DNA of 64,000 nt from NCBI GenBank assembly GCA_000004985.1, contig GG738884.1. One strand, 5' to 3'. The notes below the pieces were generated by a model, which saw only the letters and a list, made by a program, of their open reading frames with translations, did no database searches and was not told where the DNA came from. How positions within the stretch are numbered: position 1 is the stretch's first letter; each line of letters opens with the position of its first letter. The DNA is from Naegleria gruberi. Lineage: Eukaryota. Below, piece by piece: positions 1,620 to 64,000 of this stretch. A program made the translations under genes and the position numbers.

Positions 1620-3687
1620 TTAATCAAATAATCCAGAACTTCCTATCAAAGCTGGGGTTGAAGGAGAAAGTGGTTCCTCTACAACTGTACTGTCCATAGT
1701 TTTCTTTTCCTTTTCATATTCTGATTGAGAAATAATGACTCTAACAAGTTCAACATAACCATCTCCATTATTAGAATCAGGAGTACCTTCTTGTTTAACT
1801 CCTTCATTGTAAGAATAAGCTGCATGAGTAACATAGTGAACTCCATAGTTATTTTGAGGTGTACATTCACCACCACCAAAACCACCTCCTCCACCACCTT
1901 AATTGTCCAATAACACAAATAAAAATTGAAAATAATTGTTAAACTATAAAATTGAAAATGATGCTTACCTTCATACAAGCTACCACCTCCACCACCAAAA
2001 CCACCATTAGCTCCACAAGCATTACTGAAAGTTCCACCTTCACCACCATTCTTGAAACTCTTTCCACCAACACATTGATCGCCAGCACCTCCATCAATAA
2101 ACAAACCACCACCGCCACCGCCTCTGTCACCTTTAGCTGCCTTTTGACTTCTTGCTTCGGCTGGTCCTTTCGTATACACTTGTCCTCCCTTAATTAATGT
2201 TAATTTAAAAAACTCATTCCAAAATCATCATCTACTTACTGGTGATTGAACAGTCCAACTATACCAGTTGGCACCGTTACCTCCACCTCCAATAATAAGA
2301 GGCTTCATAGTATCACTATCAACAACAAAAGTACCACCACCACCTAATTGACCAACTTTTAACAAATCAAAATTGAAAATAATACTTACCACCTCCAGCG
2401 CCACATGAACTACCATTTGTACAGTCGCCACCAACTTGACCTACAAGAATGCTCAATTCTCTGCCTCTCTTCAAGTGAAAGACACCACTGACAATAGCTC
2501 CATATCCTTCTCTGAAAGTTGTAGTATATGTATTTTTACCACCTCTTGCACCAGCTGCAGTAATTTTGTAAAATCCAGTTGCTGGAACAACCCATTTTTG
2601 AATACCATTCTCCAATTTAACCTTATTCTTTAAGAATTTACAACTATCATATTGTGAGCCAATAACTGTTGGTCCGTTTTTGCCTGTAGCACCCAAGTTT
2701 GTAAACTTGATTGACATTCCTTTTGGAAGAAAGTCATATAATACACAATCTCTTTCACGAAAATTCTTATCTTCCTTATTCTCAATCATTGCAGGATTCA
2801 AATTGAATCTCATGGCTTCATAAAGCTTTGGGAAAATGACATCTCTCTTGGAAACCAAAAGTGGATGGGAATCAACTGTCGCCAAGACCTCTCCTTCAAC
2901 AATTGGGAATCTGATTTCACCCAAGAAATAGTCCAAATATTGCAATCTATTTTCCTTATCGTGCTCAATCCATCTCATCAAGGACTTGAATAAATTTCCT
3001 TCACTGCAAATGAGTTCCTTTCCAGCAAGCATGATCTTCAAGTCTTCAATTGGTAATTTAACAAAATGTTGACTTTCACAAACAGTATCAAAATCAGCAG
3101 AAATCTTAGTAAGAAGAGTCTTCTTTAAAGAGTTGATTTCTTTAAATTCTTCTAGGTATTGTGAGCAATTTTCCAAAAGAAGGAATGAAGAATCAGCATC
3201 AACAGCAGCATTTCTCATAATTTCAAGAGTCATCTCCTCAATTTCTTGCATTCCATAGGTATGAGCAAAAGTATACAAATCAATAAATTTATCCATTGTA
3301 TAATCTTTTGTGCAACCAAAATACACAACCTTTAAGAAAATTTCCAATCCAAGATCAGTCACCTGTGGCAACACAAGCTCCTTGCCAATCTCGAATTCTG
3401 GAACAAAAAGAAGTTCCTTGAGTTTTGTACTCCATTTTCCTACCTATGAACCATCATGATGTTCGGATCACACAATTAATATTACAATAACATACCAATG
3501 CTCTAAGAGCAGGAAATCTCTTTCCATTCTTACTGATCAATACGCAATCAGAAGCCTCTTCATCCAAATACAAGGATGAAATCATCGACAAGGTTTTTTC
3601 TGTACATTCAATGTAGGCCTCCTCGTCAATGGCTGTCTTTTGCACAGCACCACCACCACTAGAAGAAGAGCTAGATAATGACAACAT
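1620..3687 (-). CDS. BTB/POZ-BACK protein with a C-terminal ALK/LTK-type glycine-rich domain (GRD). Five exons on the minus strand: 3496..3687, 2390..3443, 2240..2355, 1969..2188, 1620..1897.
   Basis: The BTB core reads DCVLISKNGKRFPALRAL|VGKWSTKLKELLFVPEF across a 52-nt intron, followed by a BACK-like helical region. Then ITAAGARGG...GAIVSGVFHLKRGRELSILVGQVGG, GGGGTFVVDSDTMKPLIIGGGGNGANWY, GGFGGGGGSLYEG and ...GDGYVELVRV match the ALK glycine-rich domain signature (human ALK: ISGYGAAGGKGG...LYILVGQQGE...GGGGGGGGATYVF...PLIIAAGGGG...GGFGGGGGGC...GGGGGGYIGG). Introns are 34, 51 and 71 nt, all GTAAGT or GTATGT donors, and sit in phase 1 inside Gly codons. Confidence 0.7.
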
Positions 3688-13110: not shown

Positions 13111-14861
13111 CCAATGAATAAGAAAGAAAAAAATATGAGAAAAAGCTCCTCTCCGTATCAAGTATCACCAACCAATAATGCAAAACGTAATTCTAGGACA
13201 AGTACAGCCTCAACCCTAACAGGCACTTTCACTTCACTTCTCAAATTTATGGAAAGGGTAATGGTGGGGTTTTGTATAAGGCAAAACCAACTCCACAAAA
13301 GAAGAAGGAATGGGATGTAAGTGAATTGATTCAAAAATTGTTCATCAATGATGAGGATAGAATACAATACACGACTTGAAAGTTTATAAATTAACTAAAG
13401 AAGAACTGGAAGCAAAGAAGAGAGCGAGAATCTCTAAAAATCAAGAATTTTATAGAGTTGACACTCCGACTAATGAAAGACCTTGTTCTGCACCTCCTTC
13501 AAGACCTAAGAAAACTCCAATCAAAGAACAACCAACTGTTTCACCTAAAACTCCAAAGAGCATGCCAACTCCAACAAAAAATACTTTCAAATCAAATACA
13601 AAGAAAACCACTAGTACCACCCCTAAGAAAACATTTACTCCTCAATCAGCAGCTAAGATTGCCAGCAATATTGACCTGGACAGTACACAATTCTTGTCTC
13701 CACTCAAATTGAAACCCCCACCCCAATTAGATTTACTTCCTCTCACCTCACGCATTCTTCAACAAGAGATTTCAGAAACTTCAAGCGAAAGTGAGAAGGA
13801 TAAGAGTTTGAATATAAGCGAAGAATTCTTCCAAGAAGATGATTATCATAGATTTGGTGAGTGGAGTAGCAATATTCAACAAAATTCAGCAGATCCATTC
13901 AAAGTGCCAATTGGAGCATCTGACAATGTTCGAGGAAATGAACTTGATTTAATTAAGAACGAGCTTAGTGAACTCAGAAGCAATATGATAAAACTTGATC
14001 CAAATGCAAGAATAGTCGAGAAAAAACTTGAGGAAAGAAAGCAAAGAGAATTTGAATTAGAGGAAAAATCAATGATGTTACAACACGAGTTGGATATTTC
14101 CAGACAATCCTATGCAGAACTGGAAGAACGATTCTCAAAATACAGAGAAGATACAGAGGATAGAGAAATGACTATGCTTCAAAAAATAGAAGAACTTACA
14201 CAATTGCTTATGCAACAAGCAAAAGGCATGTACCCTGGAAAGGAATAGTATGAGTATGAATAATCTAAATGATATGGGGAGTTTTAACTATCTCGTGGAT
14301 AATCAGCACTCTGTGTACAGCAACAGCTATTCAAATGACGAACAGTATGGTGAAGATGAAACTGAGCACAATATCACACCAACAAATTCCACTCCTTCGA
14401 AACCATCCCCTCAAACAGACTTTATCATCAATGGAAGGCCTGTACTGAAAAATATCGCCTCTGAACAAGACATTGCTAGATCACCAACAAGGAATCAATC
14501 TCATTTCCCACAACCTATAATGAGATTTGAAACTAATCCTTTACTTGCAAAGGTAACTCCCTCAAAAACAAGAGTTCCATATAGTGAGGAAAATAAGGAA
14601 AACATGATGACAGAATATTCAGAGAAATTGAGTGATGATGTTTCTCCATTTGCAACTTATAGATATCCAGTCGACGATCAAGATGGAGCTATTGAAATTC
14701 ATAGACCTTTAATTGTAGGAAGAGACTTTTCAAATACAATCCAAAACAATACCGTGGTAACAAAACAACATAAGGATTTCTCTCCTCCAAATTCAGGAAG
14801 AGGACTTATGTTGCCTCCTCAATCCAAAGTTAGAAAGTTTAATATTCGAGAAAAACACTAA
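13096..14861 (+). CDS. S/T/P-rich nuclear-type protein with a C-terminal coiled coil. Probable exons: 13096..13257, 13361..14247, 14321..14861.
   Basis: ORF 13376..14248 and ORF 14250..14861 are separated by a TAG. They can be joined by a 73-nt intron (GTATGA...CTCTGTGTACAG) that keeps SNSYSNDEQYGEDETE in frame. The first exon is linked through a 103-nt GTAATG...GATAG intron, which is the weakest part of the model. Confidence 0.4.
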
Positions 14862-27606: not shown

Positions 27607-27679
27607 GGGGATGTAGCTCACATGGTAGAGCGCTTCTTTAGCATGGAAGAGGTACGGGGATCGATACCCCGCATCTCCA
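27607..27679 (+). tRNA. tRNA-Ala (anticodon AGC).
   Basis: Cloverleaf: acceptor GGGGATG/CATCTCC with the G3:U70 alanine identity pair, D-arm GCTC-ACATGGTA-GAGC, anticodon stem CTTCT/GGAAG with loop TTAGCAT, T-arm CGGGG-ATCGATA-CCCCG, discriminator A. A downstream T-run (CTTTTTATTTT) fits a Pol III terminator. There is no intron and no encoded CCA. Confidence 0.85.
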
Positions 27680-27764: not shown

Positions 27765-28127
27765 TTACCTCACCTCAAAACGACCATTTGGAGTCTTTTC
27801 GCTAGTTGAGAGACTTTTAAATTTTCTAATGATTTCCTTCTCGTGATGATCCCGAACAGATTTTTCAAATTGTTTAAGACATTCCATGGCAGTGCTATCC
27901 TTATGTAGAGTTGCTTGATTCTTATGTGCGATTCTTTGATTGGATTTAATATCTTGATGATGAAAAGGTTGGGAAATAACGTGATGGTCATTCTCGGAAG
28001 AAGTTGATCCCTCTTTGGAGGCTCGTATGTGGAGAAATGATGAAACCACTCTTTCAGTATTTCTCTCTTCTGTATAATGAGTGAAACGCGACAATACTTG
28101 TATGGATGATGTTGTGTTATGAGACAT
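27765..28127 (-). CDS. Small hypothetical protein of 120 aa, His- and Ser-rich.
   Basis: ORF only, no recognisable motifs. It lies directly downstream of the tRNA on the opposite strand. Confidence 0.25.
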   Translation of the reverse strand: MSHNTTSSIQVLSRFTHYTEERNTERVVSSFLHIRASKEGSTSSENDHHVISQPFHHQDIKSNQRIAHKNQATLHKDSTAMECLKQFEKSVRDHHEKEIIRKFKSLSTSEKTPNGRFEVR

Positions 28128-28176: not shown

Positions 28177-29290
28177 TTATTGTTTGGCACTACATCTTGC
28201 GCCAACTACAAGATTATTACCAAGCTGAACCCAATCAATCTTGCCAATAATTTTTGCTGGTAACGGTTTTCCGTTTAGTAATTGTTCAAACTTTGCCTTA
28301 TTGGTATCTCTAAGACAGACCTTATCTTTTCCTTTGTAATCACCAGTTGTCTTCAAAACATAGAGATCGTTTTTTTGATCGTATCTGAAAATTCCACTCT
28401 TTCCAATCAGATCATTCTCATTGTTGAGTTTGGATAGGTCAATATTCTTATCTTTGGCTGCAGAAGAAGTTGTATTGCTTGATGCCTTATTGGATTTGTC
28501 ATTCTTTGATGATTTTTGGGAGGAGTTATCATCAGTTTTATCTGATCTAAAGACACTTAATAGCTTCTCCAAAAACGAAGGATCTTTTTTTGTGCAAATT
28601 TCCTCAACCTTTTCACTGTAGGCTTTATAGATGGCATGTTTTTGAGAATATTTGACCCAGATAGGATGGTTTTCTTTGGACAACTTGTCAACAATTTTCT
28701 TCACCTTTTTTGAATCAGATCCGTGTTCATTCATTAGAACAGTAATTCTTTCTAAATCCAAACCAACATACAAGTAATAGAGAACATAAGTCCTGTCCTT
28801 CTTTGCCAAAATAGTTAGAGACTTGAAGGTTTCTGGATCAATGTGCTCATTAACGCATTTGTCAAATGAAACAAGGTTGGTTTTTTTGGATTCGAGAAAA
28901 TTTGTAATTCCTTCCTTTCTCAACTTTTTGGATTCTCTCTCAAGTTTCATCTTGATCAGTTGTTTTTCTAGTTGGTATCTGTCTGCAGCTTTTTCATTCT
29001 TTCCACCATTCCTATTTCCTCCAACACTTGAACTTGGTCTGTTGACTTGGCTGCCTTCGTTGCGATAACCAGAGAATCCATTACCACCTTGTTTTTGGTA
29101 GACGAATGTTTGAGAAGATGGTGCAGATGTTGTGGAATTCACTCTTCTGCTTTCAACAACAAGATCGAGAGCATCCTTTGCTTCAGCAATTGAAATGCCG
29201 AATCTTTGACCCACTTTCAAGATGAGTACATCTTTTGTATCGCCACTGTTGCTTTGGATGAAATTGATAATTTCTTGATTAGAATTCATG
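28177..29290 (-). CDS. Hypothetical protein of about 370 aa with a possible N-terminal UBA/CUE-like helical module.
   Basis: Real ATG at 29290 (MNSNQEIINFIQ...). DTKDVLILKVGQRFGISIAEAKDALDLV resembles a UBA-like three-helix bundle. The middle is basic and Ser-rich; the C-terminus has no assignment. Confidence 0.4.
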
Positions 29291-29445
29291 ATCGATTTAC
29301 GTATTTTTTTTAAGAATAGTTGGCGAAGTGACAAGTTAAAAGAAACGTGAAAAGGACAAACAATTCCTTGTTGTAAAATCAACGGAATTGAATGCTTTAT
29401 TTTTGTACTTTTCACGTTTTAGACGGAATGGTATGACTCACTGCT

Positions 29446-30711
29446 ATGATCAATATCAAAGAAAAAATGTTAACACTTGACAATCACCTTGCCAATATCA
29501 TCAATAATTACATTTTACTTGCCAAAGTCAACAAACAACAAGCATTTGACGACTTGGTAAAGGACGAACAAACATTGAACTTCCTCGCCAACAGATTTGG
29601 ATCTGTAGAATTACAGAATGCCCTGGCCCAGCTCGATCAAGATTGTAATAATGAGTCAAATCTCTCTCTTAGCCAATCATTGAAGCATGGAAAGGAACCA
29701 GTCAATTCAACATCCACTTTTGAAAAAAACTTAAAACACTCTCTCAAATCATTTGAAGACAGCGACAGTGATGACGACGATAAAAGTGGCTGGGAAGAAA
29801 CTCAAGCTCTTTATGAAGAATTGTGGAAGAGAAAGAGGCAGACAGAAGAACAGTCCATTAAAGAATCACACCAAAAGAAGGAAAAGAAATCCAATGTTGT
29901 GCCAATTTGTCAAGATTACAGGGTTGGATTTTGCAGATATGAAAATATTGCACACATTGGCAAATGTAAATTTAGACATGAGGGAAAACGACCAACTAAT
30001 TTCGCTTTTACTCTAACGCCAGCTACACCTTCTGAAGACCAAACATGGAGAACCAAATTCGTTCAAGCTTTTGAAGGGGGAAATGTTACTGTCACTTCAA
30101 TTCAAAAGATTGAAAATAAGACTTTGGAGACAATGTACAAATTGAAAAGTGAAGAAATAAGAAACAGAAGAAAGATTGAAGAAATCTCAAACTTTGAACC
30201 TTACCTCTACCATGGAACTACAGAACAAGCTTTAAATTCTATCATGACATATGGAATTAACATACCATCTGATTACAAAGCAGATCCTACGTGTCCAGTG
30301 AGTGGAAAGTTGCCAATCTCCATTTGTAAAAATGATTGTAAACTTTGCACACAAGCAAGACATTGCTGGGGAAATTGTCACATGTATGGATTGGGTGCTT
30401 ATTTTGCTGATAAGAGTGTAAAGAGTGATCGTTACGTATATGATACAAATGGAGCCAAAGATCATAAAACGGGAAGAAAGATGCTTGTTTGTAAACTATT
30501 TCCAGGAAAGGTTAAAACAATTGATACACATCTAAACAAACAAGATCAACACCATGATGACATTCTCCCTCCTTCTGGTTATGACAGTGTATTTGCTAAA
30601 GGATTGGGATCAAATGCAAAGGTTGGATTTAGTGTAATCAATTCAGAATTCATTATTTTTCATCCATATCAATGTCTTCCACTCTATCTCATTACTTATA
30701 ATAAAGCTTAA
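29446..30711 (+). CDS. Poly(ADP-ribose) polymerase with an N-terminal CCCH-type zinc finger and a PARP1-like catalytic core retaining the H-Y-E triad. A Cys-rich insertion sits in the donor-site region.
   Basis: CQDYRVGFCRYENIAHIGKCKFRHE (CCCH); YLYHGTTEQALNSIM (His); HMYGLGAYFADKSVKSDRY (compare PARP1 GKGIYFADMVSKSANY); VINSEFIIFHPYQ (compare PARP1 YNEYIVY, Glu retained). The insertion is CPVSGKLPISICKNDCKLCTQARHCWGNC. Confidence 0.7.
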   Translation: MINIKEKMLTLDNHLANIINNYILLAKVNKQQAFDDLVKDEQTLNFLANRFGSVELQNALAQLDQDCNNESNLSLSQSLKHGKEPVNSTSTFEKNLKHSLKSFEDSDSDDDDKSGWEETQALYEELWKRKRQTEEQSIKESHQKKEKKSNVVPICQDYRVGFCRYENIAHIGKCKFRHEGKRPTNFAFTLTPATPSEDQTWRTKFVQAFEGGNVTVTSIQKIENKTLETMYKLKSEEIRNRRKIEEISNFEPYLYHGTTEQALNSIMTYGINIPSDYKADPTCPVSGKLPISICKNDCKLCTQARHCWGNCHMYGLGAYFADKSVKSDRYVYDTNGAKDHKTGRKMLVCKLFPGKVKTIDTHLNKQDQHHDDILPPSGYDSVFAKGLGSNAKVGFSVINSEFIIFHPYQCLPLYLITYNKA

Positions 30712-30712
30712 T

Positions 30713-31613
30713 TTATTTCAATTCTTCCCAGTTGCCAATCGATAATCTAATCATTTTACTTCCTTTTGGCATTCCAAGTTTAATACTGGCATCAACAATT
30801 CCAGTTTTTTGGACAATTCCAGAAATTCTATTTGGCAGAACAGATCCATTTCTTTCCGATTTGATAACATTGAAATTTTCCAAATCAAGACAAGCTCTTC
30901 CTCCAACCTGATTATCATATTGACCAATACAGTCAAGTAGATAGCCATATCTCTTGTACAAGGTGAACCAACTCTCTTCCAACTAAATCTTCAATCGAAT
31001 TTAAAGAGCTCAAATCTATACTTGGGAAGGAAAAGATTTTCTTTGGATTGTGATTGCTAGTACTGCTACTCTTGTTGGATCCTTCTCCTCTATTGGATGG
31101 TTTCTTCATAGTAATAGCATTGGGTCTAGTGCTCTCTGATAAAGGAGCCTTCGAAGATTTGTTGGCAGACATTGATCCAAATGAGCCTAAACCACCTCCG
31201 TTGGAAAACAAAGCTGCCTTCTCGATATGAGAATCCAAGCAATCTTTCAACAAACATTGTTCCTTCCATTGTTTGTAAATGTCATTGTCTTCAATGAGTG
31301 AAATGTAATGTAACAAATTCTCTCTAATGACATATTTCTTTTTCAATGAGTGAGAGAAGTAGTCATTAATCATGGTGAAAGAATAGCTTGCTTTCATCAA
31401 CATTAGAATTTCAAGAAGTATAATGTTGAAAGAAGGCCCGGAAGGGTTTTCGTCAAGAACGGTTTCTAATTCGTTAATTGTTAATTGTTCGTATGAATTT
31501 TTGAAACCATTCGAAAGTACACTATTAGCAATGTTGGAAACAATCACGCAGTGATCATCTCTTTTGGTGTTGTTGAATTCCCGTTTCGTGAGATCAAAGA
31601 ACAAGCTGGACAT
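30713..31613 (-). CDS. Hypothetical protein embedded in the PARP/ARH cluster. Two exons, with the junction near 30965-31015.
   Basis: ORF 30933..31613 (MSSLFFDLTKREF...) and ORF 30713..30982 overlap in different frames. A 46-nt GTATAG...TTGGAAG intron is the most economical join. No domain was recognised. Confidence 0.35.
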
Positions 31614-31660
31614 TTTTTTTAATAAAAGAATTATTTCGAAAGTGACTCACTCATCACGTT

Positions 31661-32656
31661 TTATTGATTGGTATTCATTTCTACGTCAAACATTTCGTCT
31701 AAAGCAACTTTATCAATTTGATTTTTAAACAAGGTTTCAATGTCTTTGTTACCTTTGAAAAATTGATAAGCACCCTCAAGCATTTGTAAAGTTGATTCGT
31801 CGTGAACTTTCTTCCAACTCATTAAGTAATTTCTCAAGTTTTCTCTGCTAAAGTTATTAATAATGAATGTAATATCGTAAACTGGAAGAGGTCCTGTGCT
31901 TACACTGTTTTTGGCACTTTGTGAGTTTTCAGTTTTGGCTTGATTCGATTCGGATATTTCATTATTTGAATTTTCCAGTTTAGAATCAGTTGATCGTGTT
32001 TCTATTTCTTCACTGGCCAAAGATGGAGTAATTTCTTTGAGTTTTGTTTCGGGAGGAAGGTAATTGGGGTCATTAAGTATTAAACTCATGGTAAGACTCA
32101 AGGACATGTTGAAAACTTCATCTTGAGTGTCTTGATCCTCTGGTTTTACATTTTCATCAATTACAGTTGTGTTAGTAACATCATTTGGTGGCCTATAAAC
32201 AGTTTTTCCATCTCCAGAAGCTGTCAAATTATTTTCTTCACTTTTGACATTTGATGACTCGGTATTCCCTTCCTTTTTTTCAAAAGAACTTTCATCAAAT
32301 CCCTGATCCTTTGATGAATTATAACTTGGACACTGGAAAGTATCCATCTTTCGTGGAAGTAAATTCAAAAAATGATTCATAATGATATGAGAAGAATTCT
32401 CCTTTTCTTGATTGATGAATGCATAAAGATGTGAGAGAGAATCAGGTAAGAAGAATTCACTTGTATTTGAATTGATCTCCCTTGAAGTACTTTCCAAGTT
32501 GGAATTTTGAGAAAATGAAGAAAATTCTTGTTCTGATGTTGCTGATCTTTGAGGTGGTAAACGAGAAAGAAACAGAGAAATAATTCCATCTTCACGTTCT
32601 CTCATCACGTTTCTGGTGAAATCTCGAAGTAATAACACACATTCTGATTCTTTCAT
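31661..32656 (-). CDS. Hypothetical acidic Ser-rich protein of about 330 aa.
   Basis: ATG at 32656 (MKESECVLLLRDF) is preferred over the in-frame ATG at 32713, which would lie 4 nt from the ARH stop codon. The middle is low-complexity. The C-terminus is YQFFKGNKDIETLFKNQIDKVALDEMF. Confidence 0.35.
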   Translation of the reverse strand: MKESECVLLLRDFTRNVMREREDGIISLFLSRLPPQRSATSEQEFSSFSQNSNLESTSREINSNTSEFFLPDSLSHLYAFINQEKENSSHIIMNHFLNLLPRKMDTFQCPSYNSSKDQGFDESSFEKKEGNTESSNVKSEENNLTASGDGKTVYRPPNDVTNTTVIDENVKPEDQDTQDEVFNMSLSLTMSLILNDPNYLPPETKLKEITPSLASEEIETRSTDSKLENSNNEISESNQAKTENSQSAKNSVSTGPLPVYDITFIINNFSRENLRNYLMSWKKVHDESTLQMLEGAYQFFKGNKDIETLFKNQIDKVALDEMFDVEMNTNQ

Positions 32657-32717
32657 TTTTTTTAATGTTCTTTGTGTCACTTTACAAAGTAATATGAATG
32701 TGACGTCTATCATTTTA

Positions 32718-34310
32718 TTAATACTTCAACTGTCTGCCAAGCTTGAAGAATTGCACATTGTTTGATGATGAGAATATTTGGTTATAGATGTGATTGAGAT
32801 CTGATTCATTGAAGAACATCATTTGTTGACTAAACTTTGGTATGATATTTCTAATAAAATCCTCATCACTGACATTTCTCAACATACTTCTCTCCTTCTT
32901 CAATTGATCAACAATATTTTGGAGTACATTGACTGGTCTAGAGCACATATAATGAGGTGTTCTTTGTTCATTCTTAACAGCAAGCAACTCTTTTGTAATT
33001 TTCAACTCTTGACGATACAAAAATCCAGCAATTTTCTTTGCATCTGGAACAGCACTCCCATTTGCCCATTCAATGAACAACTTGAAGAAATCGTACAAAG
33101 TTTGATAACCAACCACTTGCTGAGTAATATAGAATGGAATGCTAATACCTTGTGCTCCTTTATAGGCACCAACCATTGCACCCACCATTGAGGCTACTGT
33201 ATCAGTATCTCCACCTGAAAAGTTAAAGTTTGAAAAATTAAATAATTGACTCAACTTACCAATATCAATAGCCTTCTTTAGTATTGTTAAAAGTTCTTCA
33301 TCCTTGTGAATAATAGAATGGAATAGAGCAGTGGTACAACTGGCAACTGCAAATCCATCACTTGGTCCATTGAGCTTATTGTCTTTGGTTACTAATGGAG
33401 CATATTCAACAACTTTAGTCTTGACAATTTTCATGTATTCATCTGGAGAGTTGAATTTTCTCTTTTGAATTTCTTTCAAGATGCTTTCAATAATAAATGA
33501 ATATTGACCCAATTCACCATCTTTAAATCCATTTCTTGAAAGATACTTTTCGAATAAAGAAGTTTCTGATAAAACTGCACTGATAATATCCAAAGAAGAA
33601 AGCTTCAAAAGAGAACCGCTCATCCATTGGTACATTAGCCATGCAATAGAATAGGCAGGAATGATTCCCAAAACTGAACGGTGAGTCAACTTGGCATTTG
33701 CAATCACTTCTTCTCTCAATCTACCAATTCTTTCATGAGGAGGATAACGAAAAACAGAAATGACACATGGCCAAACTCTCATGGCAACACCATTACCAGC
33801 TGTATCTTTTGAAATATCGTTGGTGCAATTTTCGTTTAGTTGAGCAACGCTTCCTCTAAAGTTTCTTCCAGTTCCTCTAAAACCACCAAATTGATAATCA
33901 GCTAGAGGAAATCCAGCCCAATCAAACCACTTTTGAGAAGAAAGAAACTTCCAAAGACTTTTGATGTAAACATCATTCAAATTTCCATCACTATGATCAA
34001 AAATTGATAGTAGATGAAATTTTCAAAGAACAACTTACACCAAATATGATTCAATAATAGAAATAGCCATTTGGGTATCATCAGTATAAATTAAACCTAA
34101 ATGACACAAGTGATCATTAATAGTATTATTAGATTTAGACCAAATTCGTTGAATTTCTTCTGGTTTCTTATTTTCGAAAGGTGATCCAATGGCATCTCCG
34201 ATCGTTGCACCAACAGCACAACTAACCATCGCCTTCTGCACATTATTTCTACTGAATGAAAACAATGGTATCTCCTGTTTGGTGACTTGTTTTTGAAATG
34301 AAATTGACAT
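32718..34310 (-). CDS. ADP-ribosylglycohydrolase (ARH family, PF03747-like). Three exons: 34039..34310, 33260..33990, 32718..33214.
   Basis: The N-terminal motif is AMVSCAVGATIGDAIGSPFE (GDAxGxPxE) with TDDTQM. The C-terminal motif IDIG|GDTDTVASMVGAMVGAYKG (GGDTDT) is restored by removing an in-frame 45-nt GTAAGT...TTTTCAG intron that the long ORF reads through. The first intron is 48 nt (GTAAGT...CATAG). The real ATG is at 34310. Confidence 0.7.
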
Positions 34311-34398
34311 TTTTTTTAAACTTCTTTTCACGTTTTCCAATTCACAATTGCAAAAATAAGTTTCTTGACGAGTATTCAGCGGTCACGTTTGTGTGTTG

Positions 34399-35379
34399 AT
34401 GAGAATTAACCCATCAATTAAAAATTCTAATACTCTAATCTTCATGTCATACTTTGCAAAAACAGATTTGTCACATCTCTTATCTTCCTCTCTTCTGTCT
34501 TCTGGAGGACCAACCGAAAGGAAAAGAATTCCAGAGAAGCGTAGGCACTCCTGCGATTATGAGCATGCTGGATTTTGCAAAACTGATTGTCCTTCAAAAC
34601 ATTCTTCAAAAGGAATAATCTGCAGAAATTCATTGATTGGAGGATGTTCAGATAATAAGTGTCGTTACCAACATCCACATCCAAGGAGAGTTGAGAAAAC
34701 TCTCCAAAGCATCTATGTTAACAAGGGTCTTGATTCAGATGATGATCAGAAAAAGTTCCTCAAGAGGCACGTTGTTAAATGTCCAATTCATATGGCAAAG
34801 GATGTTTGCTCTGATCCTTTGTGCAATGATTCAAAGTGTAACAAGCAACATTTTGTTGATACAAGTGTTACTGGAATACAAGCTTTTGACTTGCAAAAAA
34901 CATTGAACGGGAATACATCAAAACTTGTGGATTGTCCTCCTTCCAGTTTCGAATATGAATTGCTCATCAGTACATGGAAGGAAAAGAGAGGTCAGAGTCA
35001 AATTGTCAAAGTTGAGAAGGTGATCAATCCTTCATTGGAAGCTGTCATTGAAAGGAGAAAGGCAGAGTTATTGCAACAATGGCAAGAAATTGATTTCCTT
35101 TTCCATGGAACCTCAGAAGCAACCATTCAATTGATCCTTGCCAATGGTTTTGATGCTACAAAGAACACAAGGGCTGCTTGGGGGCCTGGAATTTACTTTG
35201 CATTCGATCCAAACACTGCAATTGGGTATTCCAATGAGAAGGGAAGTAAAAAGCTGATTGTGTGCAAGGCCTTCCTTGCAAAAGATGCTTCAGATCACAA
35301 ATTTGTTGCTCAAAATACTTGGTTTGTTGTTCAGAATACCAGTGGTCTGCAACCAATGTATGTTCTCACTTTGGCCTAA
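34399..35379 (+). CDS. CCCH zinc-finger PARP-like mono-ADP-ribosyltransferase (H-Y-T; catalytic Glu replaced). Transcribed divergently from the ARH gene.
   Basis: Two to three CCCH fingers (CDYEHAGFCKTDCPSKH; CRNSLIGGCSDNKCRYQH; CPIHMAKDVCSDPLCNDSKCNKQH). Then FLFHGTSEATIQLILANGF (His), GPGIYFAFDPNTAIGYS (Tyr) and QNTWFVVQN (Glu replaced by Thr). Confidence 0.65.
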   Translation: MRINPSIKNSNTLIFMSYFAKTDLSHLLSSSLLSSGGPTERKRIPEKRRHSCDYEHAGFCKTDCPSKHSSKGIICRNSLIGGCSDNKCRYQHPHPRRVEKTLQSIYVNKGLDSDDDQKKFLKRHVVKCPIHMAKDVCSDPLCNDSKCNKQHFVDTSVTGIQAFDLQKTLNGNTSKLVDCPPSSFEYELLISTWKEKRGQSQIVKVEKVINPSLEAVIERRKAELLQQWQEIDFLFHGTSEATIQLILANGFDATKNTRAAWGPGIYFAFDPNTAIGYSNEKGSKKLIVCKAFLAKDASDHKFVAQNTWFVVQNTSGLQPMYVLTLA

Positions 35380-35449
35380 TCATCACGTTTGAGCGCTAAT
35401 AAATGTCATTCCAATCTTTCATTTGACTTTGACAGGACCATAAAAAAAA

Positions 35450-36361
35450 ATGGAACAAGAAATTCTTGGTGCTCTTGCTCAATTTCGTAACAAGAATCAC
35501 ACGTTTGATGAAGGTTATGTGGCAGCAATACAGTTGTTGACTCATTCCTACACTTTCACCCAATTGAATACCATTAAAAAAGATATTCAACAACGCGAGT
35601 TGAGAAACACAAAAGATTTCTTTAAAGAGTTGGCTGGATCTTACTCCAAAAATTCTGAAGGAATGACCAAGGAAGAATATTTGCAAGAATCTATTAGAAA
35701 TCTTTCTGGATTTTCTTTTGCTGATATGATCAACCTGAGCAAGGAGGAATTCTATAAAGCACTAGAAAGTAGAAAAGGCCCAAAACGTGTGGTAAGCGCT
35801 TCTACCACTCCATTGGATTCTGATAGTAGTGACGATGAAAGTCCAAAACCATCTTCCTCATCAGGCAAGAGATCATATTCATATGATCATCTATTCTCTA
35901 GACACGATTTGAGCTCCAAGTTAGATATCAGACCCAAATGCAAATATGGAAATACTTGTAATCAGTTATATGATGAAAAGCATATGAAGGAATTCTCACA
36001 TCCATTCCTACCTCCATGTTGTTTCAAAAACTCTTGCTCTGAATATGGTGATGAAGCTCACAAGTTTTCACATCCCTGTAGATATGGCTCTCAATGTAGA
36101 GAATTGAAAGATCCACATCACACCCAATACTATTCTCATGCAGAGAGAAAGGTTTGTGAACATGACAAGGAATGTCTTTGTATTCATGATAGAGATCACA
36201 TGCTTAGAGTTAAGCACACTGGTGCATTGGATTTCAGGCATGAGTGTAAGTATGGGTTATTATGCAAAGATGACTCAAGAGAACACCATTTGAAATATGC
36301 CCATCCCTCAACTTTAGGTATTCCAACAAACTTTTACGGTACGTTGAGAAATCTTATTTGA
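35450..36361 (+). CDS. PBZ (PAR-binding C2H2-type zinc finger) protein with 3 canonical and 2 degenerate PBZ motifs.
   Basis: CKYGNTCNQLYDEKHMKEFSHP, CRYGSQCRELKDPHHTQYYSHA and CKYGLLCKDDSREHHLKYAHP fit C-x5-C-x6/7-H-x5-H with the conserved Y/F-G, as in APLF and CHFR PBZ. The N-terminal half is helical and acidic with an SDSSDDESP stretch. Confidence 0.65.
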   Translation: MEQEILGALAQFRNKNHTFDEGYVAAIQLLTHSYTFTQLNTIKKDIQQRELRNTKDFFKELAGSYSKNSEGMTKEEYLQESIRNLSGFSFADMINLSKEEFYKALESRKGPKRVVSASTTPLDSDSSDDESPKPSSSSGKRSYSYDHLFSRHDLSSKLDIRPKCKYGNTCNQLYDEKHMKEFSHPFLPPCCFKNSCSEYGDEAHKFSHPCRYGSQCRELKDPHHTQYYSHAERKVCEHDKECLCIHDRDHMLRVKHTGALDFRHECKYGLLCKDDSREHHLKYAHPSTLGIPTNFYGTLRNLI

Positions 36362-36480: not shown

Positions 36481-37989
36481 ATGTTATCAAAAATTGACTC
36501 TGGAGATCGTAGTGTAGATTTCATATATGAGTATGTTAATAGAATTAGCCCACAACACAGATGTAAAGAACCAATATTAAAACTCATTCTATCGCATGGC
36601 ACTTTACTATCAAGAGTTTTCCAAAAGAAAATGACAAGCTCACCAAAGGAAGCATGCATGGAGCTTGTTTTTACAAGTCCTTTAATTACACAATCCATCA
36701 TGCATGAAAGACTCACATTATCCAATGATGTTAAAAAGTGGATTGTGGAATTGTTGAACTTTCAGATAGACCAACGTGACAATAAGAATCCTAAATCTGT
36801 GACTTGCAAATTAAAATTAAGCAAAAAATGCCAGCAGGAGGTAGAAGGTGTGATTAAGGACATTGTTCGTGCCGTCTTTTCACACACAGTTACTGGTATT
36901 GGTTGCCCATTGGATTTAGCTGTGAAAACAGACCAACAGGTTTTTTCAATTGTTGGTATTAATAAGGCAGATTATTATGGTGATATTCTTTTCATACTTA
37001 ATAGGAAAATCATGTTCCATCCAGATTTTAACATGAGTTTGGAAGCTGCCACTCATTATGTGGATCGCCCTGGAGAAGCTTCAAAGACAAACAAGTGGAG
37101 AATCCCTCCTGGAAATAATTCAAACAGTAATTATGAGAATGCCAAATTGCACCCAGCTGCCAAAAACTTTCACAAATTATTAGCTAAGGATATGGCAGTA
37201 TATCATTTCAAATTATTTGGTTCTTTGCCTAAATCTGTTGATGATTTGGTAAATACCTCACTCCATGAAGATCCACACAATGTATACGAAGGTCATTTAC
37301 CTCCAATAGTCCCAGTATCTTATATTTCCCACGTTATTATGCCAAAAAAGGTATTTGATAACCTGTCTGATGCAGAAAAAAAAGTACTCAAAGTTGTCAT
37401 TTTGAAAAACAAAGCAGATAGATTAATATTCAAGGACTCTGGGCATCATCACCTTATCAAATCCCAACAATTATGGGATTGCAAGAAGCACAAATTGACT
37501 GAAATGTATTTAGGAAGATTATTGTCCTTCTCTATCATGTATCAATATGGAAAGTTCAGTATGTTGCCTCAATTAGCTCTTCATTCATCAACAAAAACAG
37601 TTATTGAACTGTGCATCAGAGGAAAGGATATTGGTATATGTCTTTCACCAACCAAGAAGGCAGATAGATCCAATTCCCTATTCATCATCATCAACAAGGT
37701 TTTCTTTTGGAAATCCAACAAGACTCCATCAACAATAATTACTGACGGCAAGAAGGAGTTGAAAAAGGTCAAGGAATTCATCCTGGGTGATATCTTTATG
37801 GAAAGATATATTTACTATACCATCACCTATAAACCTGGTAAAAAGTTGAGAGTGGAGGTGAGTGAGAAGAATAGTAATGATATTGAGAGGAAATCGTGCG
37901 AGGTTAACATCTCCCATAGTAATTTAAAGAACATACTATTCTCTAATTGGAGTTCTCTAGTAGAAGTTAAATATATTTCAATTAAATAA
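36481..37989 (+). CDS. Hypothetical protein of 502 aa, adjacent to the PBZ gene.
   Basis: Long clean ORF, real ATG at 36481. No recognisable motifs. Mixed alpha/beta composition with an HHH tract. Confidence 0.4.
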   Translation: MLSKIDSGDRSVDFIYEYVNRISPQHRCKEPILKLILSHGTLLSRVFQKKMTSSPKEACMELVFTSPLITQSIMHERLTLSNDVKKWIVELLNFQIDQRDNKNPKSVTCKLKLSKKCQQEVEGVIKDIVRAVFSHTVTGIGCPLDLAVKTDQQVFSIVGINKADYYGDILFILNRKIMFHPDFNMSLEAATHYVDRPGEASKTNKWRIPPGNNSNSNYENAKLHPAAKNFHKLLAKDMAVYHFKLFGSLPKSVDDLVNTSLHEDPHNVYEGHLPPIVPVSYISHVIMPKKVFDNLSDAEKKVLKVVILKNKADRLIFKDSGHHHLIKSQQLWDCKKHKLTEMYLGRLLSFSIMYQYGKFSMLPQLALHSSTKTVIELCIRGKDIGICLSPTKKADRSNSLFIIINKVFFWKSNKTPSTIITDGKKELKKVKEFILGDIFMERYIYYTITYKPGKKLRVEVSEKNSNDIERKSCEVNISHSNLKNILFSNWSSLVEVKYISIK

Positions 37990-40571: not shown

Positions 40572-42560
40572 ATGGAACCATTCGATGATATTGTAACACC
40601 AACTAAAATGGAGGCACCGATCGACGATTTTACATCTGATCAAACACCACAAACACCGGGAAGTGCTATTGATTTTGGAGCCTTGAGTGGATTGGAAGTT
40701 GATGTGGCTGAGATTGAAAATCCAGATGCTGTTCAAGAAAAATTAGCCTCTCTCTACAATGTAGAGGAGTGCTCTGATATTGTATTTATAGTTAGGAATA
40801 GAAGATTTTTTGCTATCAAGGCTCTTGTGTGTGGTTGGAGTCCAGTTTTCAAGTCAATGCTATGTGGAGAGTTCATTGAATCAAGTTTAAGAGAAGTTCC
40901 TTTGGATGATGTTGAAGAAACTAGTATGGAAATGTTTTTGAAGGTTATTTATTCTGGAAAGACTGGTCCATATCCAATTCATAATTTTGTTGATCTATAT
41001 GCATTTGCTAATAGATTTGAAGTTCCAGAAATTGAAAAACTCTGTCTCACTGCATTACAAGAACAAAATTTGGCCAAACACTTATTCCCATTGATTGATG
41101 CTTGTGAAAAGTATATTGATCTCGAAGAAATTGAAAAGATTAGAACCGAAGTTGTAGCCAAAATTTGTTGTGAATTTGATGAAGTTTGTTCTAGACCTGA
41201 CTTTGTGAATATGCGTATTGATTACTTGTTGAGATTCTTAAAATCTGGAATTATTGTCATTCCAGAAGATGTTTTATTCAATTCTTTAATGCGTTGGATT
41301 GTACACGATAAGGAGCAAAGAATTCAATACTTGGATGAATTATTGTCCTTTATTAGATTCCCAATGATGGAATCTGTTGCATTGACAGAAATAGAAAACC
41401 ATCCTCTTCTCCAAGATAAGATGGATGAAATGAAATCCATTATTTACGAAGCAATGAAATTCCAATTGAACAAGGATGCCATTCCAGAAGAAAGAAGAGT
41501 TCATGAAAACTTTAAAGAAAGAGAAGGCCCACCAGAGGAAGATGGACATTCCTACAAGTACAAGAAGGTCTTTACTTTGACATCTCTTGGTTGTACAGGA
41601 AGCGTCAAACCAACAAGTATTGGAACTCATTATGACAAGCATCTTTCCAAAGTAATTACTCTCAAGAATGGTATTCAAGAATGGAAAGTTCATGCTAGTG
41701 GAAAATATAGAATAACTGCAGTTGGTGCATCTGGAGGAATCAACCCACATACCACCAATACTAAGGGTGGTAAGGGAGCCAAAGTGAGTGGAATTTTCAA
41801 ACTCAAGAGAGGTCAACTTATCCAAGTATTAGTTGGTCAAAAAGGAGGTAAGTTGAACTATTTAATAATAATCGGTCTAAACAATTGTTAAGAGGATGCC
41901 ACAGGTAGTACTGGCGGTGGAGCTGCAGGAGGTAAGTTGTTCATTATTTGAATGAGGATGTTAATTAACAATTTTCAGGTGGTGGAGGTACATTTGTAGT
42001 GGATGGAGAATTGCAACAACCATTGATAATTGGAGCTGGAGGTAGCGGGGCAAATTGGTATTCATTTACCATCGATGGACCTGGTGGTCAATTATACGAT
42101 CCTTCAATTGAATCAACCAAGTCGGTTGAAGCTTATGCAGAAAGAGGAGGTGGCGGCGGTGGATTTTATATTAAGGGTGCTAATGGTTCATCTTGCACTG
42201 GTGGTGCCAGCTTTTTAGAAGGTGGGTCTGGAGGTACTAACTCAACTAGTACTTATGGAGCTAAAGGTAAGTAACACAAGAAATTTGATTGAATTGATTT
42301 ATTCTCTTAAAGGTGGATTTGGTGGAGGTGGTGGTTCTGAGCACGAAGGTGGTGGTAAGTAATTTTTTTATTATCCTATTGAATTATTAACTTTTCAAGG
42401 TGGTGGAGGTTATGTTGGAGGCAAGTCACTCAAATCTAATGAATATAACACTTCTCGTCCTGATTATGGTGCCTATTCTTTCAATTCTGGTTTAAAGCCA
42501 GAAGGTGAACCAGCTTGTCACGTTGGTGATGGTTATGTTGAATTTGCCAGAGTTTTCTAA
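40572..42560 (+). CDS. BTB/POZ-BACK protein with a C-terminal ALK/LTK-type glycine-rich domain; paralogue 2. Five exons: 40572..41847, 41893..41931, 41979..42266, 42313..42354, 42400..42560.
   Basis: BTB: DIVFIVRNRRFFAIKALVCGWSPVFKSMLCGEF. GRD: ITAVGASGGINPHTTNTKGGKGAKVSGIFKLKRGQLIQVLVGQKG | EDATGSTGGGAAG | GGGTFVVDGELQQPLIIGAGGSGANWY...GGGGGGFYIKGANGSSCTGGASFLEGGSGG | GGFGGGGGSEHEGG | GGGGYVGG...GDGYVEFARVF. All four introns are 45-47 nt, GTAAGT donors, phase 1 within GG(T/A) Gly codons. Confidence 0.7.
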
Positions 42561-61928: not shown

Positions 61929-64000
61929 TTATTCAGAAACGTTTATTACAAAAGTGTCACTAATGTCTGCTTCTTCGACATACTTGCTGTCAAGATATTC
62001 ACCATTGGCGTACAATGTACCCATATTGTCGTAATTCTTAGCAAAGATATTACCATCATTGCCAGTTGGAAGAATGAGTTTGTCTCTGTGGAGAGCATTG
62101 TTGAAAGTGAGAATTTGGCGATAGACTGGTCCTTCGTTGGTTTGATAATTTTCGTCCACATTATTCAAAAGAACTGTTTCAGTACCTCCCTCAGTTTTGA
62201 GAATAATTTCTGAAAGACAGCCAATAATTGGCGTATCCTTGCCTGCAATGTGATAGATTGGAGTTGCATGAATAGTTCCCCATGTTGGGATTTCACCATA
62301 TTGATTATAGAAAGTATCGACCATCAAGACAAACTTGGCAATGGCATAATCAGTACAGGTGGAATATCCTTGATTGATACATGCCTGATCATTGTTTCTC
62401 AGCATGGCATCCTTGTAATAGTACCATAAGGCAAGTCTATAGTTAGCAGCTTCGGCTCCTTCCATTTCCTTAGAAGCAAGTGTACCGAAATATCTCAAAA
62501 ATCCTTCAAATAAAGAAGCTTCCTTTGAAGTCTTCTTCATATAACCATCCCAATTAATCAAACTGGTCAACAAGTCAGAGTATTTAGAACCCTTCTTGGC
62601 CATTCCACTTGTCATGTTAACAAACATGAATTTGTAATCTCTATAAACCACGCTGAAAGTATCCAATTGAATATTAATCATATCTTGCATGGTCAATTTA
62701 CTTCCAGTCTCTGCATTTTGCTTCATTAATACTGCAAAAAGTTCTTGAATTCTTTGCTGTCTGTAATCGAAAAAGTAATCAGCACTGACTGTGTATGGAT
62801 ATCCTGGAGGAACAACACGATTATTAGCAGATGAAACATATCCTCTCTTTGGATTGTAAACTTCTGGTGCCTTGTCCACAGGTACATATCCATCATAATC
62901 CCATGTCATTGTATCTCCTCTAACAGCATATCGTCCAGTATGGCCCTCCCTACGCATTGGAATTCTTCCAGAAAGCTTGTAACCAATATTACCATTTACA
63001 TCCATGAAGGCATAGTTGAATACAATAGACTTAATTCCATTCACATAGGTACGGAACTCATTCCAATTCTTACTCAAAATCAATGCGTAGTAATTATTTA
63101 CGCTAGTGTCATTTTCAACTTGAGCAATCCATCTGAGAGCTGGAAGTTCTGTCTTGCTCTCGGATAACACTGGACCAAAGATTGACTCTCTGACCTTGAT
63201 GGTGACTGGATCAGCTCCAGAAATTTTGATTGTTTCACTATAAATAGTGAATGGTTTGGAGACTCCATCGACGAGATAATTATTCTCATTTGATGGATCT
63301 GGTGTCAAAATGTAGAGATCCTGAACATCAGTATATCCCAATGTTACACCCCAACCAATATATTCATTTCTTCCAATACCAATACCAGGAACTCCACTAA
63401 AAGCAGCTCCAGAGAAATTCCTAGGAGCTGAAGAGTCACTAGAAGTTCTATAATTCATTTGAACAAGATAAAATTGATCAGGAGCTTGGAATTCCAAGTG
63501 AGGATCATTGGCCAAATATCCTGTAGGACTATCAGTGAATGCCTTATTGACAGCCCAATTATTAGAGCCAATGGCCTTCTTGGTATTTCTTACCATTTCC
63601 TTGACAGTTTTAGAAATGAAGGAATATCTTCCACTGGAACTTTTACCCAATTTTCTACTTCCAGATTTTGGAATATAGGCACCTGTATTATTTCTGTTTT
63701 GCTTCCACTCCATAGCGAGTTCTTCTTGATGGGTCAAGTTGAGTCCTAAATCCTCACGAGTCACAATGGTGGCTGCATCAAACGGAACTGGTGGATCAAG
63801 GACCTCCATTCTGCTCAATGTAACTCCATACTTTGTCATTGCATTGTATCTTCTTTCTTCATCCAAATAATTCACAGACATGATAAACTCGATATACTTT
63901 ACAACACAGAGAGAATCAAAAATGGACCAAGGTTCAATATCATATCCCAATAGAATGGCTTCTGCAGGAGCTGCATTTCCACTTTGTAAATAAGCATTAA
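61929..64000 (-). CDS. Penicillin amidase / acyl-homoserine-lactone acylase family Ntn-hydrolase, partial. The 5' end lies beyond the window edge. No introns are seen in 2 kb.
   Basis: The frame is open to position 64000, and the track start MGYD is a TTG artefact. The beta-subunit N-terminal nucleophile region is GSNNWAVNKAFTDSPTGYLANDPHLEFQAPDQFYLVQMNY (SNxWA...ANDPHL). The length and the LDTFSVVYRDY region fit PF01804. Confidence 0.65.
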   Translation of the reverse strand, partial: NAYLQSGNAAPAEAILLGYDIEPWSIFDSLCVVKYIEFIMSVNYLDEERRYNAMTKYGVTLSRMEVLDPPVPFDAATIVTREDLGLNLTHQEELAMEWKQNRNNTGAYIPKSGSRKLGKSSSGRYSFISKTVKEMVRNTKKAIGSNNWAVNKAFTDSPTGYLANDPHLEFQAPDQFYLVQMNYRTSSDSSAPRNFSGAAFSGVPGIGIGRNEYIGWGVTLGYTDVQDLYILTPDPSNENNYLVDGVSKPFTIYSETIKISGADPVTIKVRESIFGPVLSESKTELPALRWIAQVENDTSVNNYYALILSKNWNEFRTYVNGIKSIVFNYAFMDVNGNIGYKLSGRIPMRREGHTGRYAVRGDTMTWDYDGYVPVDKAPEVYNPKRGYVSSANNRVVPPGYPYTVSADYFFDYRQQRIQELFAVLMKQNAETGSKLTMQDMINIQLDTFSVVYRDYKFMFVNMTSGMAKKGSKYSDLLTSLINWDGYMKKTSKEASLFEGFLRYFGTLASKEMEGAEAANYRLALWYYYKDAMLRNNDQACINQGYSTCTDYAIAKFVLMVDTFYNQYGEIPTWGTIHATPIYHIAGKDTPIIGCLSEIILKTEGGTETVLLNNVDENYQTNEGPVYRQILTFNNALHRDKLILPTGNDGNIFAKNYDNMGTLYANGEYLDSKYVEEADISDTFVINVSE

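Follow-up and report, generated by a model that had tools for sequence, protein, structure and literature searches.

In a 64-kb stretch of Naegleria gruberi contig GG738884.1 (GenBank assembly GCA_000004985.1; hereafter the window, meaning this stretch at its full length), two orphan genes, gene 1 (30713..31613) and gene 2 (31661..32656), are located between a PARP gene and an ARH gene. Seven genes of the cluster that contains them are kept together in a distant relative, and an octamer, AAACGTGA, is enriched in the window and confined to this cluster. Because the relative keeps the group together and the genes share this promoter motif, genes 1 and 2 probably work with the PARP enzymes, and the module is, judging from its sequence, probably co-regulated. 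We tentatively favour the reading that both are genuine protein-coding, lineage-restricted members of a conserved ADP-ribosylation module, in which gene 1 and its paralogue p412 would act as binders and gene 2 as an adaptor or substrate. The cluster comprises, in their order along the window:

28177..29289, minus strand: p412, 370 aa, paralogue of gene 1, head-to-head with PARP1
29446..30711, plus strand: PARP1 (Pfam PARP E=6.5e-12), with one CCCH-like finger and an H-Y-E triad
30713..31613, minus strand: gene 1, about 300 aa after repair; open reading frames (ORFs) 30933..31613 and 30713..30982 in the window
31661..32656, minus strand: gene 2, a 331-aa acidic protein (pI 4.6), mostly disordered
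32718..34310, minus strand: ARH (Pfam ADP_ribosyl_GH E=1.9e-30), with one 48-nt GTAAGT..AG intron at 33991..34038
34399..35379, plus strand: PARP2, a second PARP (Pfam) with several CPSF30-like CCCH fingers
35450..36361, plus strand: PBZ-finger protein with about five PBZ-like C2H2 fingers (Pfam zf-CCHH/PBZ E=1.3e-4)
36481..37989, plus strand: gene 3, a 502-aa globular orphan, the best conserved of the cluster genes without a family

Genes 1 and 2 exist and lie where the original prediction had put them, both on the minus strand between PARP1 and ARH, but gene 1 is not a single intact ORF in the window. Gene 2 was also said to end within about 60 nt of the ARH stop codon; in fact, gene 2 starts there, its ATG (32656) being located 61 nt downstream of that stop. 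The cluster is larger than had been described, with p412 as an additional member.

Conserved gene set and shared spacer motif

We searched the window ORFs against two contigs of one species, L002 (13.5 kb) and L003 (11.9 kb), which are 99.9% identical to each other and carry the proteins P0002 and P0003. Seven genes of the window cluster have orthologues on these contigs (primed below), at 28-51% protein identity:

PARP1 orthologue: 37% identity, E=1e-92
PARP2 orthologue: 40% identity
PBZ orthologue: 51% identity
gene 3 orthologue (P0002): 47% identity
p412 orthologue: 33% identity, E=7e-34 to 1e-33
gene 1 orthologue (P0003): 28% identity
gene 2 orthologue (g2'): weak match

All seven are ADP-ribosylation genes or orphans. 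After flipping, the order in the relative reads g1'(-) PARP1'(+) p412'(+) g2'(+) PARP2'(+) g3'(-) PBZ'(-). Since gene 1 and p412 are counted as the paralogues they are, the order is equal in both species, with a contiguous suite of OB-like gene, PARP1, OB-like gene, gene 2, PARP2 and then the PBZ/gene 3 pair, differing by several inversions (OB-like refers to the predicted C-terminal domain of gene 1 and p412). PARP1 thereby has one of the two paralogues on either side in both species. The flanks are unrelated, consisting in the relative of a guanylate cyclase gene at one edge and of DUF4419 with a (GGGTTT)n telomere at the other, versus tRNA and Gig2-like genes and a 707-aa ORF in the window. 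Conservation of the two genes in the cluster of a related genome had been proposed as a check, and both are indeed present on L002/L003, the only distant relative in the databases.

A repeat finder returned a 40-nt similarity between the p412/PARP1 and ARH/PARP2 spacers, ending in TTTTCACGTTTT. The octamer AAACGTGA occurs in 7 copies in the 64-kb window versus 1.22 expected, a count that no shuffle reached. All 7 copies are located within 29343-35390, inside the cluster, including 6 in its short spacers. Their locations are given below with those of related forms, L001 being a 1.9-kb metagenome contig 95-98% identical to the window:

29343..29419, p412/PARP1 divergent spacer: two copies of AAACGTGAAAAG, one per strand
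31654..31661, minus strand: AAACGTGA(TGAG), conserved in L001; it overlaps the stop codon of gene 2 and precedes the ATG of gene 1 by 41 nt
32605..32612, minus strand: AAACGTGA(TGAG), within the gene 2 coding sequence (first 52 nt); another AACGTGA lies at 32592
34328..34390, minus strand, ARH/PARP2 divergent spacer: two copies of AAACGTGA
35383..35390, minus strand, PARP2-PBZ spacer: AAACGTGA

The octamer has two extended forms, AAACGTGAAAAG and AAACGTGATGAG. In an unbiased count over six cluster spacers (541 nt), AACGTGA was the top 7-mer after poly-A, present in 4 of the 6 spacers, and 6 of its 11 window copies fell within these 541 nt. The core ACGTGAT is found in 6 copies on L003 (1.15 expected), four of which lie in the upstream regions of p412' and of the first PBZ' ATG and in the interval separating PARP1' from g1'. 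As evidence of co-regulation, standing in for the suggested co-expression check, the motif is positive for gene 1, ambiguous for gene 2, where the copy lies inside the coding sequence, and negative for gene 3.

The strongest rival explanation is that genes 1 and 2 are bystanders, i.e. fast-evolving taxon-restricted orphans without an ADP-ribosylation role that are still adjacent through too little rearrangement. It would account for the poor conservation of the two genes (28% and ~27% identity) and for the frame disruption of each in one lineage; moreover, gene density is so high that neighbours are unavoidable, and the comparison is limited to two lineages. However, the seven-gene set loses synteny at both of its edges while its inner order outlives several inversions, no copy of the octamer lies outside the cluster, one being located 41 nt upstream of gene 1 and another in the 5' part of gene 2, and a gene 1 paralogue lies across the same PARP in both species. 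We regard a bystander origin as somewhat unlikely.

Contig L002 terminates (13400-13538) with GGGTTT repeated about 17 times and then an Illumina adapter, so that it reaches the chromosome end, placing the PARP cluster ~3.4 kb from the telomere. In the literature, TTTGGG is known only as a Paramecium variant repeat, yet TAA is a stop codon in these genomes. Just downstream of the gene 1 orthologue, L003 is 722 bp longer than L002 between aligned blocks (L002 9894 vs L003 9255-9976), which may reflect an assembly error or a real insertion/deletion. The C-terminus of this orthologue is predicted differently in L002, probably from a separate small difference inside the gene.

Coding status and predicted structure of genes 1 and 2

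Gene 1 is split in the window, where GGTTCACC stands in place of the GGTTTTCACC found in L001 (TT at 30966-30967); with its two extra T, the L001 gene reads straight through. P0003 agrees with the read-through peptide (VLFKKYKDGLGYLLVCHN against LVFTLYKRYGYLLDCIG). Because L001 reads through and P0003 matches, the break is a 2-nt deletion (30966-30967), due to an assembly error or to a lesion of this strain, and not an intron. A 52-nt GT..AG intron (30908..30959) joining the two ORFs was ruled out by L001 and P0003; its splicing would remove strands 1-2 of the predicted barrel described below.

The start of gene 2 was set at ATG 32656 because the in-frame ATG at 32713 is not conserved in L001, where it reads ATA. 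The gene is an unbroken 331-codon ORF in two strains. Between the window and L001, the ARH-gene 2 spacer differs at 6 of 62 nt and the gene 2 coding part at 27 of 993. When 5.8e9 proteins were searched by word index, P0001, at 95% identity, was the only match to gene 2. The match between gene 2 and g2' is weak by BLASTP (residues 9-40 in each protein, E=1e-3), but their full-length collinear alignment (~27% identity) scored z=5.8-8.4 over composition-preserving shuffles, none of 1000 of which reached its score. On both L002 (5047-5935, minus strand) and L003 (4408-5296, minus strand), g2' is split across two frames, the first of which stops at TTG TAA A after 64 codons. No GT..AG intron that could rescue the L003 copy keeps both conserved segments, and the split may reflect a true frameshift, use of an internal start or an error shared by both assemblies.

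Using the Nei-Gojobori method, we obtained omega (dN/dS) values relative to L001 of 0.25 (gene 1, 8 differences) and 0.54 (gene 2, 27 differences); both values are below 1 and, within the limits of these small counts, suggest purifying selection on both genes against this 95% relative. Genes 1 and 2 also have an A-rich start context that is common to ARH and PBZ. The 2-nt frameshift in gene 1, the frame break of g2' in two assemblies and the omega of 0.54 for gene 2 are what one might expect if gene 1 were a pseudogene in this genome and gene 2 a spurious or degenerating ORF. Such decay is improbable, as L001 and L003 (P0003) both have an intact gene 1, over a divergence of 28-32% identity, gene 2 stays open over 331 codons in two strains with an omega below 1, the spacers flanking gene 2 diverge faster than its coding part, and the start context is shared with ARH and PBZ.

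We ran hmmscan with genes 1, 2 and 3, p412 and their orthologues, gene 1 being used both split and repaired. Genes 1, 2 and 3 and p412 yielded no Pfam match even at E<=10, and neither they nor the orthologues matched macro, PARG, NUDIX or WWE at that threshold, in agreement with the original prediction. Genes 1, 2 and 3 and p412 had no NCBIfam match and no PDB match by sequence or profile, and eight proteins had no match among the PADLOC defence families at E<=1. Relatives of genes 1-3 were found in only two other organisms in searches of billions of proteins, and an exhaustive phmmer search of 1.84e9 representatives with repaired gene 1 returned exactly one, P0003 (E=1.5e-22, 32% identity, residues 4-292). 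Confident homology to an unrelated housekeeping family, the result named beforehand as contradicting a link with ADP-ribosylation, was seen in none of Pfam, NCBIfam, PADLOC, PDB, the 5.8e9 proteins and the phmmer set. A search of 2.9 million viral contigs retrieved no relatives of gene 1, 2 or 3, nor did BFVD, and scanning JGI metagenome contigs with gene 3 and PARP1 retrieved none either.

Repaired gene 1 is predicted to comprise a helical N-domain (aa 1-137), a basic Ser/Lys-rich linker of pI 10.7 (aa 138-195) and an OB-fold-like C-domain (aa 196-300, about 30713..31028). p412 would have a small N-terminal helical domain, a helical middle domain, a likewise basic Ser/Lys-rich linker and a C-terminal barrel like that of gene 1. 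The two proteins match each other over the C-domain (phmmer E=4.7e-7), and alignments agree on their paralogy. AlphaFold2 (AF2), run on repaired gene 1 aligned with P0003 and p412, gave a model with a mean pLDDT (predicted local distance difference test) of 50, rising to 60-70 in the C-terminal 100 residues, whose predicted topology b1-b2-b3-helix-b4-b5 follows the OB-fold order. The remote-homology check that had been suggested was carried out with Foldseek on this model and with profile searches, the latter finding no family. Foldseek against the PDB gave no significant match for the C-domain (best E=0.014, an S1 domain), although its top list consisted nearly entirely of OB-folds, none significant (exosome S1 subunits, RPA, AspRS anticodon-binding, BRCA2, Stn1-Ten1, Rim1, eIF2-alpha and Rho). 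Similarity to an OB family was detected neither in Pfam at E<=10 nor with a profile of the four C-domains against PDB sequences, which gave chance matches only. Since Foldseek returned no significant match, we treat the OB-fold-like C-domain of gene 1 and p412 as a low-confidence hypothesis from modelling and not as an assignment.

Gene 2 is ~60% low-complexity acidic/Ser-rich sequence, with residues 111-262 almost wholly Ser/Asn/Glu/Asp/Thr/Lys; it also has a conserved N-terminal motif, LLRDF..FL..LP.Q, and ~70 C-terminal aa that are poorer in disorder-type residues. We tested the UIM consensus Ac-Ac-Ac-Ac-Phi-x-x-Ala-x-x-x-Ser-x-x-Ac and found two exact occurrences in g2' (SEEDQIEIAKARSLQD and YEEEFQRALAISEQES), 7 residues apart, Pfam UIM_2 reaching only E=0.2.

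Given their genomic association with a writer, an eraser and a reader and the lack of a family assignment that would speak against it, gene 1 and/or gene 2 might encode new catalytic enzymes, i.e. an ADP-ribose hydrolase or transferase unrelated to macro, PARG, NUDIX and ARH. This is quite improbable for a gene 2 of such composition. It is so for gene 1 as well, where the only structured parts are a barrel of ~100 aa and a small helical domain; hydrophobic residues or Gly (L, N, G, F, Y) occupy the invariant positions of the barrel, and no His/Asp/Glu/Cys constellation is conserved. A better enzyme candidate, large, globular and 47% conserved, is gene 3, which lies outside the two genes.

Lys-Ser dipeptides (NKSSK; QKSSKNDKSNKAS) abound in the linkers of gene 1 (30713..31200) and p412 (28177..28500). 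In animals, serine residues are ADP-ribosylated preferentially in a K-S context, and the linkers might be putative modification sites for the adjoining PARP and ARH.

Neighbouring genes and surroundings of the cluster

The PARP1 triad (HGT / YGLGAYF / NSEFIIF) matches the triad positions of PARP10 and tankyrase by alignment and is kept in the orthologue; PARP1 thus has a triad of the poly-ADP-ribosyltransferase (ART) type. Its orthologue (L003:6798-8336, minus strand) contains, directly ahead of the catalytic Glu, a 51-nt in-frame insertion with the inferred start GTATGT; it is probably a short intron left unspliced, in line with the 48-nt intron of the window ARH. ARH is a generic member of the ARH3/DraG-type family, with TDDT and GGDTDT motifs visible in its sequence. 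PARP2 is nearest to the mono-ART clade PARP14/10/15/ZAP, and its third triad position is, in a by-eye reading, not Glu. The PBZ-finger protein scores 22.3 bits in Pfam, just below the gathering score of 22.7, and at least 3 of its 5 fingers fit, by eye, the consensus [K/R]xxCx[F/Y]GxxC...H...[F/Y]xH quoted in PMC4756826, which places it among PBZ proteins.

Gene 3 had been given the same status as genes 1 and 2, and it has no family match in Pfam (E<=10), NCBIfam, PADLOC or PDB. It has a single relative, P0002, at 47-49% identity, and AF2 run on this 2-sequence alignment gave an unusable model (pLDDT 31). Resemblances noted by eye, of TGIGYP to a macro loop and of FHPDFN to a J-domain HPD, were dropped, as no profile hit backs either.

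The window is AT-rich (~34% GC) and very gene-dense, its stop codons include TAA and TGA, and its content is eukaryotic, including Atg3, Vps36, a gamma-tubulin complex protein, receptor-kinase-like proteins and BTB-BACK proteins. Three features directly outside the cluster have no counterpart on L002/L003:

26451..27551, plus strand: Gig2-like/PhyH dioxygenase gene (Pfam)
27607..27679, plus strand: tRNA-Ala(AGC), 500 nt from the cluster edge
27765..28127, minus strand: 120-aa orphan ORF, with the start context AAAAAAATG shared with the cluster and an internal ACGTGATG

Elsewhere in the window, two paralogous genes (2367..3374, minus strand, and 40572..41891, plus strand) combine BTB/BACK with an ALK/LTK-type glycine-rich domain, an unusual architecture, and a penicillin-amidase family ORF (61929..63950, minus strand; Pfam E=2.7e-119) lies in this eukaryotic setting, possibly through horizontal acquisition.

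That the genes are cargo of a virus or mobile element inserted beside the tRNA gene is very improbable. It could be argued from the 500 nt between the tRNA-Ala gene and the cluster edge, from the subtelomeric position in the relative and from the flanks that differ between species, but the 2.9 million viral contigs and BFVD hold no relatives of genes 1, 2 and 3, Pfam finds no integrase, transposase or capsid among ten cluster-region ORFs and most window ORFs of at least 250 aa elsewhere, no terminal repeats surround the cluster, and its base composition equals that of the surroundings.

Proposed roles and comparison with known systems

Starting from the established genes, paralogy, orthology, conserved cluster and motif enrichment, we infer a fold, ligands and roles as follows. 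The module would have an H-Y-E PARP and a CCCH-PARP similar to mono-ADP-ribosyltransferases, the multi-PBZ protein as its reader and, in this genome only, ARH as its eraser; four orphan families complete it. Gene 1 and p412, which flank the H-Y-E PARP, would bind single-stranded nucleic acid or poly(ADP-ribose) (PAR) and so target or read out that PARP, and may also be its substrates. Gene 2 would be an acidic disordered scaffold with short linear motifs, serving as an adaptor or substrate and perhaps connecting ADP-ribosylation with ubiquitin. Reading of PAR by OB-folds and PBZ is established (PMC4756826). The original prediction had argued from association that the two genes are candidate PAR-metabolism or regulatory factors; the conserved block and shared motif strengthen their candidacy as regulatory components or readers, while nothing supports an enzymatic part in PAR metabolism.

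Several observations weigh against the favoured reading. No sequence or profile method ties these proteins to a known family, and the structural model is of low confidence. Genes 1 and 2 are each frame-disrupted in one of the two lineages, gene 1 by its frameshift in the window and gene 2 by the split of g2' across two frames on both contigs of the relative. In the window, the UIM of gene 2 is degenerate (QDEVFNMSLSLTMSL; Ala -> Ser, Ser -> Thr) and the first motif is lost. Gene 3 and the ARH-gene 2 spacer are without the motif. ARH is not in the conserved set, being present on neither L002 nor L003, so that the proximity of gene 2 to ARH is not conserved either. Finally, the comparison covers only two lineages, and the conserved order could therefore reflect inheritance rather than selection. 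Because the ARH proximity is not conserved and each gene is frame-disrupted in one lineage, we retain genes 1 and 2 as candidate regulatory or reader components only.

A bolder version, which we consider unlikely, is that the block of seven to eight genes is a eukaryotic counterpart of a defence island, co-regulated, fast in its evolution and in part subtelomeric. It would combine CCCH-PARPs of ZAP/PARP12-like architecture, gene 1 and p412 as OB-fold sensors dedicated to foreign or damaged nucleic acid, gene 2 as a disordered, ubiquitin-linked adaptor, a multi-PBZ reader and gene 3 as effector. If true, it would add three or four new protein families to ADP-ribosylation signalling and represent a rare functionally coherent, promoter-motif-defined gene cluster in a protist.

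Although writers, erasers and readers of ADP-ribosylation are well catalogued, the field has been changed by new accessory factors, HPF1 being one example. In this cluster, three or four families that lack detectable relatives are linked with the two PARPs and the PBZ reader along two independent lines, a gene set that stays together in the distant relative despite rearrangements and an octamer that occurs in promoters of this cluster only; the protein families are new, whereas the kind of system, an ADP-ribosylation writer, eraser and reader with accessory partners, is known. Provided that the predicted OB-like proteins do interact with PAR or nucleic acid and act as partners of the H-Y-E PARP, they would represent new modules for reading or targeting; otherwise, the families are ordinary taxon-restricted orphans.

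Among known PAR and single-stranded DNA readers with OB-folds (hSSB1, BRCA2 OB, RPA/Stn1-type), the C-domain of gene 1 and p412 is comparable in its predicted five-stranded barrel with a helix between strands 3 and 4, in having S1/RPA/Stn1/BRCA2-type domains as its nearest structural neighbours (a fold match that is not significant) and in being encoded beside a PARP. It differs from them in having no sequence or profile similarity to an OB family, and neither the order of helical domain, linker and barrel nor the helical domain itself has an identified counterpart. Like the animal CCCH PARPs (PARP12, PARP7, ZAP/PARP13), both cluster PARPs join CCCH fingers to a PARP catalytic domain, PARP2 being closest to PARP14/10/15/ZAP, and like the animal antiviral PARPs, the cluster proteins evolve fast (28-51% identity between two lineages); in contrast, one cluster PARP keeps H-Y-E, the cluster has no WWE or macro domain, and the partners are the adjoining orphan families.

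With tandem-UIM adaptors (RAP80, S5a, epsins), g2' shares the presence of two UIM-consensus motifs 7 residues apart in an acidic disordered protein, the UIM spacing of RAP80 being used as the comparison. Unlike in these adaptors, the Pfam UIM_2 match of g2' stays at E=0.2, window gene 2 is degenerate and has lost the first motif, and the cluster encodes no ubiquitin enzymes.

The closest parallels in gene organisation are prokaryotic ADP-ribosylation neighbourhoods and the vertebrate PARP9-DTX3L-PARP14 locus, which also cluster writer, eraser, reader and accessory genes and also use divergent promoters, here those of p412/PARP1 and ARH/PARP2. None of the accessory genes described here is homologous to the known ones, and PADLOC finds nothing. 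The cluster further differs in being eukaryotic, with a cluster-specific octamer and seven to eight genes that are transcribed separately and spaced 30-120 nt apart, which, if the favoured reading is true, would make it an unusual operon-like organisation of a signalling pathway in a eukaryote.

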